A DNA stretch of 40,000 nt from Prolixibacteraceae bacterium (GTDB lineage Bacteria > Bacteroidota > Bacteroidia > Bacteroidales > Prolixibacteraceae): assembly GCA_963662675.2 (NCBI GenBank), contig CAXXHP010000004.1, positions 510,094-550,093 of the forward strand. The letters are read 5' to 3'. The notes below the pieces were generated by a model that did no database searches, was not told where the DNA came from, and saw nothing but the letters and a program-made list of their open reading frames with translations. Shown here one piece after another: positions 12,575-15,117 of this stretch; position 1 is the first letter of the stretch; the number at the start of each line of letters is the position of its first letter. Position numbers and translations under genes: made by a program.

Positions 12575-13051
12575 ATGTCAAAAGCGCTAAACATAGATAA
12601 AGCAGAACTAACTGATTTAAAAGATATTTTAGATTTGCAAAAAGAAGCTTACAGTCAAGAAGCTGAGATTTACAATGATTTTGATATTCCACCAATGACC
12701 CAAAATATTGATTCATTAAAAATTGAGTGGCAAAATGGAACTGTAATAAAAGCTGAGAGAAACGGACAGATAATTGGTTCCGTAAGAGCCGAGTTGATTG
12801 ATGATGTTTGCAAAATCGGCAAACTGATTGTGAAGCCTGACTTTCAAAATCAGGGAATTGGTAAAAGGCTAATGACAGAAATAGAAAGATTATTCAATAC
12901 TTGTTCGACTTATGAATTATTTACTGGTGACAAGAGTGAGAAAAATTTGACACTTTATAGAAAATTGGGATACATAGATTTTAAAACGAAACAGATTGAT
13001 AATAACTTGAAATTAATATATTTACAGAAACAGAATAATGCCGTTGCCTAA
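12575..13051 (+). CDS. GNAT-family N-acetyltransferase (cassette 7, gene 2)
   Basis: 158 aa. Motif A VKPDFQNQGIGKRLM. The TAA stop (13049-13051) is formed at the R''/intron junction; the uninterrupted site GCCTAAC would give the same stop. Confidence 0.8.
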   Translation: MSKALNIDKAELTDLKDILDLQKEAYSQEAEIYNDFDIPPMTQNIDSLKIEWQNGTVIKAERNGQIIGSVRAELIDDVCKIGKLIVKPDFQNQGIGKRLMTEIERLFNTCSTYELFTGDKSEKNLTLYRKLGYIDFKTKQIDNNLKLIYLQKQNNAVA

Positions 13052-14993
13052 TCGAATAGCCCGCCCCGCTAGCAAATACTAGCAGGGAGAGGCTTTCACA
13101 CCACCATACGTACGGGTCTCGTATACGGCGGTTCGTTAAGTCATAGGAAACAAAACCGTACTTGGTTTTACTTGATTGTAGAGTTCCAGTAAAGAAACGT
13201 AACCACGCAATTTCAATCTATCAACCGTAATGGTAGTACCCAGAATTGGGCTTTGTGCAATTGCCCATCCACCCATTCTGGAACGACTCCATGCATAGGC
13301 TTGACCCTGTTCAACGCCCAAACGAATCAGGTTCTTCCTTTTTCGCTCAGGCTTTTTCCAGTGGTGCCAAATGCAATAGCGAAGTCGGTTCCGCAGCCAC
13401 CCATCCAGTTCAGCCAGCTTGTTTTGGATGCTTGCCATTCGGAAAGCATTAATCCATCCTCGCTGCACCTCGCCCAACTTTTCGATACGTTCATCAAAAC
13501 TCATGGGAGTGGTTTTTCGGGTGAGGACTTTTAGCTTTTGCTTCAAGCTCGTCCAACTCTTTTCGGATACAACCAGTTGATATTTGCCCCGTTCGCCTTT
13601 CTTATAAGTTGGCACAAAGCCAAATCCTAAGCAGGTGAAATGTACAGGTCTGCGGATGCCGCTTTTCTCCCAATTGATCGTTAGTTTCAACTTGTTTTTA
13701 AGAAACTTAAAAATGGTGTTGCCAACCTTTCGGGCTGTTGTCTTCGTTTTAACGTAAATGCTAAAATCGTCGGCATAGCGGACAAAACGCAAACCTTGCC
13801 TTTCCAGTTCCCTGTCCAGTTCGTGCAATACGATGTTGGACAGTAAAGGACTTAATGGGCTGCCCTGCGGAACTCCCTTTCTGCGTTTGACCAGTTTCCC
13901 GTTTATTTGTATCGGGGAACGCAGCCATTTGCGGATAAGGCGCAAGGTTTCGCGGCAGTTGATTTTGCGGTAAAGCAGTTGCAGCAGATAGCAATGGTCT
14001 ACTTCATCGAAAAAGGTTTTTAGGTCAATATCTACAATGTATTGAAACCCTTGGTTGATGTAAGCCTGTGCTTTTAGGACTGCCTGACCAACGCTCCTGT
14101 TGGGACGGAACCCAAAACTGGAGTCTGAAAACCCAAACTCGAAGCGTGCAGTAATTACTTGTAAAACCGCTTGTTGTAGCAGGCGGTCGGTTACGGTGGG
14201 AATACCGAGTAACCTTGTTTTCCCTTTTCCTTTTAGAATTTCCACTCCTAAAATGGCTTGTGGCAAATACTTTCCCGAACGAACCTTGGCTGTCAGTTCT
14301 TCCTTGTCAATAGACAGGAGTTCTGACAGTTTACATACGGGCATGCGGTCGACTCCTGCTGAACCGTGGTTCCGCTGGACTTTGTACATGGCCTGTAACA
14401 GGTTCTTTCGTGTTAGAATTTGATCAATCATTTTAGTTTCAATTCATTGTTTCCATGTCCCGCCTAACGCAAAGCTAGATCCTGCTCACGCAGAAAGCTT
14501 CTTTGCAGCATTTGGGACAACTTATCGTTCAGCCCTTCAGCTTTTCTGTGAGTCCTCTGCCTTTTCTATGACAGCTCGTTTCCAAAGCCTACTATGGCCT
14601 CTGCTGACTTCTCAACTGTCCTTGCGGAAAGTTGAGACCTCCCCAGGTAAGAGCATCTTCCTTCCTCCAATCACTGCTGGATCTACTACGGAACGATTTT
14701 GGTATTCGTTGGACGTTACAATGATGTGCTTGCTTATCCTCGTCTCGTAGCCTCGTATCCAATTTCTGTTCGTCAGTACCGGAGTTTGCCGGTTGGCTTC
14801 CTTCACTGCATACCTCACGGTAAACCAGCTTGCCACTTGCTAACGGTTCGAAGCGTTACCTCCGCCCGTAAGGGACTTACACCCTCTGGAATAATTTCAT
14901 GCTACACTTTATTGTTTAGTAAGAAAAAGTTGTACTTTACATTCTTTTTCAAACCTTTAATAAAGTGGGCACATGCTCATGCTGGGCACACAC
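13051..14993 (-). mobile_element. group II intron, class C-like, attC-inserted (copy 1, 1943 nt)
   Basis: Read on the minus strand. 5' end GTGTGTGCCC (complement of 14984-14993) and 3' end GGGCTATTCGAT (to 13051). Domain V at complement 13101-13131 (CCGCCGUAU-ACG-AGACC-CGU-AC-GUAUGGUGG: CGC triad, AC bulge). Domain VI at complement 13054-13097 with a bulged A (13057) 7 nt from the 3' end. RT ORF in domain IV. Boundaries are defined by where the six copies stop being identical (+/-1-2 nt). Confidence 0.9.
13136..14431 (-). CDS. group II intron reverse transcriptase/maturase (no endonuclease domain)
   Basis: 431 aa. RT blocks LLGIPTVTDRLLQQA, FGFRPNRS, DIDLKTFFDEV, GVPQGSPLSPLLSNI, RYADDFSIY (YADD), INWEKSGI. 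Maturase/X motif RGWINAF. No HNH/En domain follows. Confidence 0.95.
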   Translation of the reverse strand: MIDQILTRKNLLQAMYKVQRNHGSAGVDRMPVCKLSELLSIDKEELTAKVRSGKYLPQAILGVEILKGKGKTRLLGIPTVTDRLLQQAVLQVITARFEFGFSDSSFGFRPNRSVGQAVLKAQAYINQGFQYIVDIDLKTFFDEVDHCYLLQLLYRKINCRETLRLIRKWLRSPIQINGKLVKRRKGVPQGSPLSPLLSNIVLHELDRELERQGLRFVRYADDFSIYVKTKTTARKVGNTIFKFLKNKLKLTINWEKSGIRRPVHFTCLGFGFVPTYKKGERGKYQLVVSEKSWTSLKQKLKVLTRKTTPMSFDERIEKLGEVQRGWINAFRMASIQNKLAELDGWLRNRLRYCIWHHWKKPERKRKNLIRLGVEQGQAYAWSRSRMGGWAIAQSPILGTTITVDRLKLRGYVSLLELYNQVKPSTVLFPMT

Positions 14994-15117
14994 ACGCGGT
15001 AATAAGTAATTTGGCGGTAAGTGATTTGCGAAGGTTTGAGCTTTTAATTAGGTTTGGAGGAATTAATAAAGGTTGGAGTGGTAAAGTACCAAACTACTCA
15101 TACCGCCAACGTTAGCG
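14994..15117 (+). other. attC site 7, right part (left 7 nt at 13044-13050; split by intron copy 1)
   Basis: Rejoining TTGCCTA + ACGCGGTAATAAG... restores GTTGCCTAAC, the reverse complement of GTTAGGCAAC at 11840-11849. Arms gcggtaataagta / tactcataccgcc. R' GTTAGCG 15111-15117. About 131 bp when rejoined. Confidence 0.8.

Follow-up and report, generated by a model that had tools for sequence, protein, structure and literature searches.

Class C group II introns at a single position of attC-type sites in a Prolixibacteraceae cassette array

The stretch analysed here, referred to as the window, comprises 40,000 nucleotides (nt) of a Prolixibacteraceae bacterium (G000:C4:510094-550093; genome of 3.68 Mb, 37.5% G+C) and contains an array of gene cassettes ending in attC-type sites, into which six group II intron copies are inserted, all on the minus strand. 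The analysis makes it very likely that a single mobile class C intron retrohomed, antisense, into the bottom strands of these attC-type sites, each time between the two T's of the GTT in the R'' box, at NTGT|T. The phenomenon itself is known; the present case of it is well supported and corrected, and comes from a less familiar host. Its main value is that of a clean example, in which the cut is TGT|T, the damage to R'' seen in a preliminary description of this DNA is an artefact, and the proposed exon-binding site 1 (EBS1) can be tested. The setting, a Bacteroidota host and an atypical array recombinase, adds some interest.

Intron identity and boundaries

The six copies were identified in the window through matches to the Rfam models RF02001 and RF01998, with scores for the intron (125.7 and 49.5 bits, respectively) that exceed the gathering thresholds; every copy also matches RF00029. 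The ends characteristic of class C were present, with GUGUG at the 5' end, ...CGAU at the 3' end and a bulged A at position -7 of domain VI. A 431-amino acid open reading frame (ORF), intact in five of the six copies, encodes a protein with RVT_1 and GIIM domains that passes the NCBIfam model for group II reverse transcriptases/maturases (TIGR04416; 355.8 bits against a cut-off of 300). No endonuclease domain was found in this protein, for which Pfam returned only RVT_1 and GIIM. The six elements are class C (IIC) group II introns, near-identical to one another. Five of them share 98-100% identity, each occupying a different site, and this near-identity implies recent spread and counts as indirect evidence of splicing and retrohoming. 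Across the genome, 34 matches were detected, among them at least ten full-length copies and numerous fragments.

The preliminary description had placed the cut at (G/T)T|T(A/G), and the strings that it quoted, corresponding to the minus-strand bases before GTGTGTGCCC and after ...CTATTCGAT, were located as listed in the six copies. The 3' boundary derived from them holds. The RF00029 alignment terminates exactly at ...CGAU, the homologues end in CUAYUCGAU followed by T, and a T, which is also found in the empty sites, follows the intron at all 14 intact 3' ends of the genome. The 5' boundary cannot be set by comparing copies alone, because the exon end ...GT and the intron start GUGUG form a GT repeat. 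In class C homologues from Firmicute plasmids, GUGYG immediately precedes CC(C/U)NGCAUG, and the exons end in TT, AA, GC or TT, which renders their boundaries unambiguous; by homology, therefore, the Prolixibacteraceae intron starts with GUGUGCCC, not with GUGUGUGCCC.

Empty sites locate the boundary at the same position. In the genome itself, three paralogous attCs that lack an intron continue from ...TGT to T, where their occupied counterparts continue from ...TGT to GUGUGCCC. A search for attCs in 60 related genomes produced alignments that stop exactly at the shifted boundary, and 14 of these loci were fetched. Of these, twelve are empty and show ...TGT|T(A/G)... at the target; they come from other genera and share 92-99% identity with the attCs of copies 2, 4 and 5, and one of them, L055, also carries the distal R'' bases of copy 4. 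The insertion point remains the same in every copy, as previously claimed, but the empty attCs keep in the exon the GT that had been assigned to the intron. Together, these comparisons place the intron 5' end 2 nt inside the start drawn earlier, a shift that amounts exactly to the tolerance set in the preliminary description. The corrected junction is (G/T)TGT|T(A/G), which separates the two T's in the GTT of the R'' bottom strand, with TTGT|T in three of the window sites and GTGT|T in the other three (corrected first and last intron bases in Table 1).

In cassette arrays, the R'' box of each cassette is complementary to the bases with which that cassette begins. When the flanks are rejoined with the shifted boundary, R'' matches the cassette start, including the GTT, over 9-10 bases in five of the six cassettes (copies 2-6), and the unshifted boundary produces a G that mismatches the cassette start in copies 3, 4 and 6. 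With the shift, the top strand of all six rejoined sites presents a canonical ...A|AC. The AAA, AAAA and AAAC strings that had been read in copies 3, 4 and 6 as non-canonical R'' boxes, or as boxes altered during insertion, are consequently an artefact of the boundary.

Target hairpin and exon recognition

A search profile built from eight sites of the window recovered ten attC-type sites, each about 125-130 nt long, and an intron splits five of the ten. In the array, six of about 13 sites bear an intron. With the cassette ORFs on the plus strand and the introns on the minus strand, the introns run antisense to the cassettes. Both the profile and the predicted folds agree with the earlier proposal that all introns sit at one homologous nucleotide of R'', inside the bottom-strand GTT. 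Chance can be excluded as an explanation for this shared position, because five of the six occupied sites are distinct and clearly recognisable attCs. The array is unsaturated, since several empty attCs of the window carry perfect targets.

In DNA folds of the rejoined bottom strands, R' pairs with R'' and the cut falls inside that helix, between the two T's that pair with the second and the first A of AAC, respectively. R', both L boxes, the loop and two R'' bases lie 5' of the intron; the last five R'' bases (TRRRY), which pair with the far end of the hairpin, lie 3' of it. The view that the whole folded attC precedes the insertion point applies to the L-box stem, making '3' foot' a fair term for the site, but not to these five bases. 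A stem-loop (the attC hairpin) 5' of the site and a short pairing, ACA with UGU, between EBS1 and intron-binding site 1 (IBS1) are both present, in line with the class C habit of inserting after a stem-loop with a very short IBS1 that had been invoked for these copies.

The ACA of a domain I terminal loop, GCACAUCA, is complementary to the invariant exon end UGU (IBS1, 3 nt), and the fourth base of the loop motif, U, can pair only with an exon A or G at position -4. Loop positions 3-6 and the exon end change together across homologues: UUAA/UUAA in C. felsineum (L038), GCGA/UCGC in Anoxybacillus (L039), AAAA/UUUU in Cytobacillus (L040), ACCU/UGGU in two Adhaeribacter introns, ACAA/UUGU in Kl.pn.I3 and ACAU/(G,U)UGU in the window intron. 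In nearly all of 50 further Bacteroidota sites, an ACA loop faces a TGT exon end. On the basis of this covariation, we propose that ACAU constitutes EBS1. The domain I pairing anticipated in the preliminary description is hence recovered, with ACAU facing UGU, but it needs the boundary 2 nt further in; with the earlier boundary, a constant loop would face exon ends that vary among CGT, ATT, TTT, TGT and GTT. EBS3 cannot be placed by covariation, because IBS3 is T in nearly all homologues.

These observations point to a likely mechanism of insertion, shared with other class C introns, in which the folded attC bottom strand (R', L boxes, loop and first two R'' bases) would supply the stem-loop required immediately 5' of the insertion point, UGU at the exon end would pair with the ACA of the GCACAUCA loop, and the first 3' exon base, T, would serve as IBS3 for a putative EBS3. 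Having recognised the hairpin, the intron would reverse-splice into the site, probably while the latter is single-stranded, and the endonuclease-less reverse transcriptase would then make the DNA copy. The position of EBS3 and the activity of the intron at present are matters on which we infer rather than observe. The 1.9-kb introns that split nearly half of the array sites are likely to hinder the folding of these attCs and, with it, cassette excision.

Several observations weigh against this interpretation. The RF00029 match of copy 1 covers the full model (positions 1-77 of 77) with a score of 32.3 bits, under the gathering cut-off of 40. In copy 6, the 3' exon is a true R'', and the 5' exon does not constitute a full attC by either profile or fold, its likeness to attC being limited to its last 25 nt or so. 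The fourth IBS1 position is paired inconsistently, the E. faecium homologue (L036) presents no clear EBS1/IBS1 match, and two Bacteroidota sites end in AGT and CGT with no compensating change in the loop. Lastly, the tyrosine recombinase encoded upstream of the array, on the same strand as the cassettes (4384-5517, plus strand), matches the integron integrase model TIGR02249 in two pieces and with a score (198.8) under the cut-off of 265, and exceeds that of a XerA/integron-integrase model (222.7 against 220). Because the array recombinase falls under the integron-integrase cut-off, the term attC is used here in a structural sense.

It could also be argued that the copies are not independent, and that a module comprising attC and intron has spread through duplication or cassette recombination. 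The window does contain a duplicated cassette segment (10766-11065 and 20846-21145), copies 1 and 2 have their last ten exon bases in common, and a copy in contig C3 combines a 5' attC 94% identical to that of copy 4 with a different 3' exon. We nonetheless deem this account very improbable, given that the five full intron-bearing attCs differ along their length and belong to different cassettes, that each rejoined R'' still matches its own cassette start, that near-identical attCs are empty in other genera and that the attC of the duplicated cassette is empty in both copies. The evidence hence indicates many independent insertions. Still less credible is an intron start of GUGUGUGCCC at a (G/T)T|T target, with R'' boxes in copies 3, 4 and 6 that deviated from the canonical form or were shortened on insertion: the sequence common to all copies does run through the extra GT and one further T, and GUGUG is a valid 5' end in both registers, but this GT is present in all the empty attCs, both the paralogous ones and the near-identical ones from other genera, the stretch before CCC is exactly five bases long in class C homologues, a constant EBS1 would be left with no constant IBS1, and the match between R'' and cassette start would break at the G in the three copies.

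Relationship to known class C introns and to Bacteroidota relatives

Class C introns inserted in this manner have been described as group IIC-attC introns, which occupy the attC bottom strand in antisense orientation to the cassettes, within an R'' consensus TTGT/T (IBS1/IBS3), and in which the attC hairpin replaces the terminator stem-loop (PMC7923331; PMC3001079). Those reported from integrons by Quiroga, Centron, Leon and Roy are S.ma.I2, E.c.I7, Kl.pn.I1, Kl.pn.I3, G.s.I1 and N.e.I1. The window introns share with them the class C ribozyme, an endonuclease-less protein, the antisense orientation in the attC bottom strand, the TTGT/T target in R'', a short IBS1 and a hairpin 5' of the site. 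In Kl.pn.I3, found in plasmid NZ_KX711879 and named in PMC5027574, the exon ends in ...TTTGT and the intron is followed by T and the remainder of R''; its EBS1 resides in the same domain I loop and reads ACAA, as opposed to ACAU in the window intron. The insertion behaviour is hence that of the published group IIC-attC introns, a link that the preliminary description does not draw. What is new lies in the host phylum, the number of copies and the protein of the intron. The host belongs to the Prolixibacteraceae (Bacteroidota) instead of the Proteobacteria, the array recombinase scores under the integron-integrase cut-off, almost half of the array is occupied, with at least ten full-length copies in the genome, and the protein is 38% identical to that of Kl.pn.I3, which it does not join in an unconstrained tree. 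Classical integrons have been reported to be rare in the Bacteroidetes (PMC9024848). A DNA similarity search of a plasmid collection with domain I and with domains V/VI led to six proteobacterial plasmids, and none of the six, upon inspection, presented the match in an integron.

A second set of relatives are the terminator-targeting introns of Firmicutes (L036 in E. faecium, L038 in C. felsineum, L039 in Anoxybacillus and L040 in Cytobacillus), with proteins 43-44% identical to that of the window intron. They share with it the 5' (GUGYG-CC(C/U)NGCAUG) and 3' (CUAYUCGAU) ends, a T as the first base of the 3' exon, an insertion point a few bases after a stem-loop and a 3-4 nt IBS1 that faces the same loop. 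They differ in their hairpins, which are transcription terminators with a T run and not attC-type, and in their IBS1 sequences.

Related introns were also identified in several Bacteroidota genera (Table 1), with proteins 62-92% identical to that of the window intron; the relatives of this protein place the genome in the Prolixibacteraceae. As in the window, the junction conforms to NTGT|T: 47 of the 50 non-redundant sites end in TGT, one of them being too short for the fourth base, and the first base of the 3' exon is T in 40 of the 50. At least 19 of 43 Bacteroidota sites match the attC profile built from the window. Two Adhaeribacter introns depart from this pattern, with a GGT exon end and an ACC loop. 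Within the genome under study, the 13 intact 5' junctions read TTGT (nine), GTGT (three) and ATGT (one). Two further 5' intron fragments, at C3:244687 and C3:247586, occupy near-identical versions of the copy 5 attC but are preceded by ...TGTGC, in which C takes the place of T at exon position -1.

In some of these relatives, a second element directly follows the intron. In L067-L069, L071, L074, L086 (a Draconibacterium metagenome-assembled genome) and L046, as well as in L070 and L121, the T and the R'' are missing after the 3' end ...CUACUCGAU, which adjoins either an element starting with GTGTGCTGTGAG or the 5' end of a second intron. Such an arrangement suggests that a single attC has received tandem or nested insertions.

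To place the Bacteroidota introns, we relied on a quick maximum-likelihood tree with a midpoint root, no outgroup and a single IIC-attC reference, Kl.pn.I3, on a long branch. In the unconstrained tree, the 16 Bacteroidota rows form one strongly supported clade apart from this sole reference. With slightly less than even probability, the Bacteroidota introns may form a separate lineage that has specialised independently on the TGT|T of R'' in attC-like hairpins, the cassette arrays concerned being served by a Xer-like recombinase and not by a classical integron integrase. It is possible, if somewhat doubtful, that the window intron belongs instead to a monophyletic group IIC-attC lineage with S.ma.I2 and Kl.pn.I3 and reached the Bacteroidota by transfer. 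The target, the strand and the position of the EBS1 loop are as in Kl.pn.I3, and an approximately unbiased (AU) test on the same quick tree and single reference did not reject a joint clade (p = 0.19), but the protein is nearer to those of the Firmicute terminator-type introns than to that of Kl.pn.I3, and the clade of Bacteroidota rows in the free tree stands apart from this reference. Were the Bacteroidota introns a separate lineage, they would exemplify convergence on a recombination hairpin as a target, with the attC bottom strand as a recurrent landing pad for class C introns, and bursts such as the one observed here could freeze or re-wire cassette arrays.

Feature coordinates and additional observations

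Table 1. Location of the introns, their component parts and the attC-type sites of the window, with related introns in other Bacteroidota
Feature	Position	Strand	Details
Copy 1	13051..14991	-	1941 nt, corrected boundaries; Rfam RF02001, RF01998, RF00029; 5' start from homologues and empty sites
Copy 1 intron-encoded protein	13136..14431	-	431 amino acids, reverse transcriptase and maturase; Pfam, TIGR04416
Copy 1 domains V and VI	13051..13133	-	CGC triad, bulged A 7 nt from 3' end, terminus ...CGAU; RF00029
Copy 1 proposed EBS1 (ACAU)	14724..14727	-	domain I terminal loop GCACAUCA; placed by RF02001 alignment
Copy 1 exon 1: attC of the 'GNAT' cassette, bottom-strand 5' part	14992..15116	-	R', L', loop, L'', GT of R''; profile match 15116..13046 and fold
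Copy 1 exon 2 start: remaining R'' of the GNAT attC	13046..13050	-	bottom strand TAGGC
Copy 2	15940..17880	-	attC halves 17881-18002, 15936-15939
Copy 3	18782..20752	-	37-nt replacement at domain V apex; attC halves 20753-20878, 18778-18781
Copy 4	22613..24553	-	attC halves 24554-24679, 22609-22612; empty counterparts L053, L055 in another genus
Copy 5	25877..27817	-	attC halves 27818-27943, 25873-25876; empty counterparts L054, L056, L058-L062, L065
Copy 6	29827..31846	-	decayed: broken ORF, domain I insertion, 17-nt 5' deletion
Empty attC	8014..8145	-	...AATTTGT|TATGG
Empty attC	8630..8759	-	...AATATGT|TATG; paralogue of copy 4 attC
Empty attC	11290..11418	-	identical duplicate of 21370-21499
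Empty attC	21370..21499	-	intact target ...ATTGT|TATG; occupied paralogue at C6:6967
Related introns			Draconibacterium, Marinifilum, Saccharicrinis, Chryseobacterium, Persicobacter; loci L031-L035, L067-L145

No literature on recombinases under the name 'rAID-1' was found. In the GNAT cassette interrupted by copy 1, the TAA stop codon spans the junction (13049-13051) and its last A is an intron base; without the intron, this base would be the initial A of the AAC in R''. The stop of the GNAT gene is kept intact after insertion because the intron supplies its last A. The two instances of the duplicated cassette segment, which include its empty attC, are 97% identical. At 10795, the sequence after the R' box goes unrecognised by the attC profile.

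The attC 'families' of this array are far better conserved than the cassettes that they terminate. Sites 95-99% identical to the attCs of copies 4 (24554-24679) and 5 (27818-27943) occur in other genera of the family beside different cassettes (L053-L062, L065). A reshuffling of flanks by recombination between intron copies, considered for C3:249786 and copy 4, was dropped as unnecessary, given that attC families recur with different cassettes.

In copies 3 (18845-18882) and 6 (29890-29927), the domain V apex CGAGACC is replaced on the minus strand by a 37-nt segment. The variant retains the lower helix, the CGC triad and the AC bulge, with the insert folding as a branched extension, and was detected in at least six more places of the genome (C4:622324, C4:696659, C3:245010, C5:225005, C5:228210 and C1:1312). 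The many different sites at which it occurs suggest that this domain V variant was mobile.

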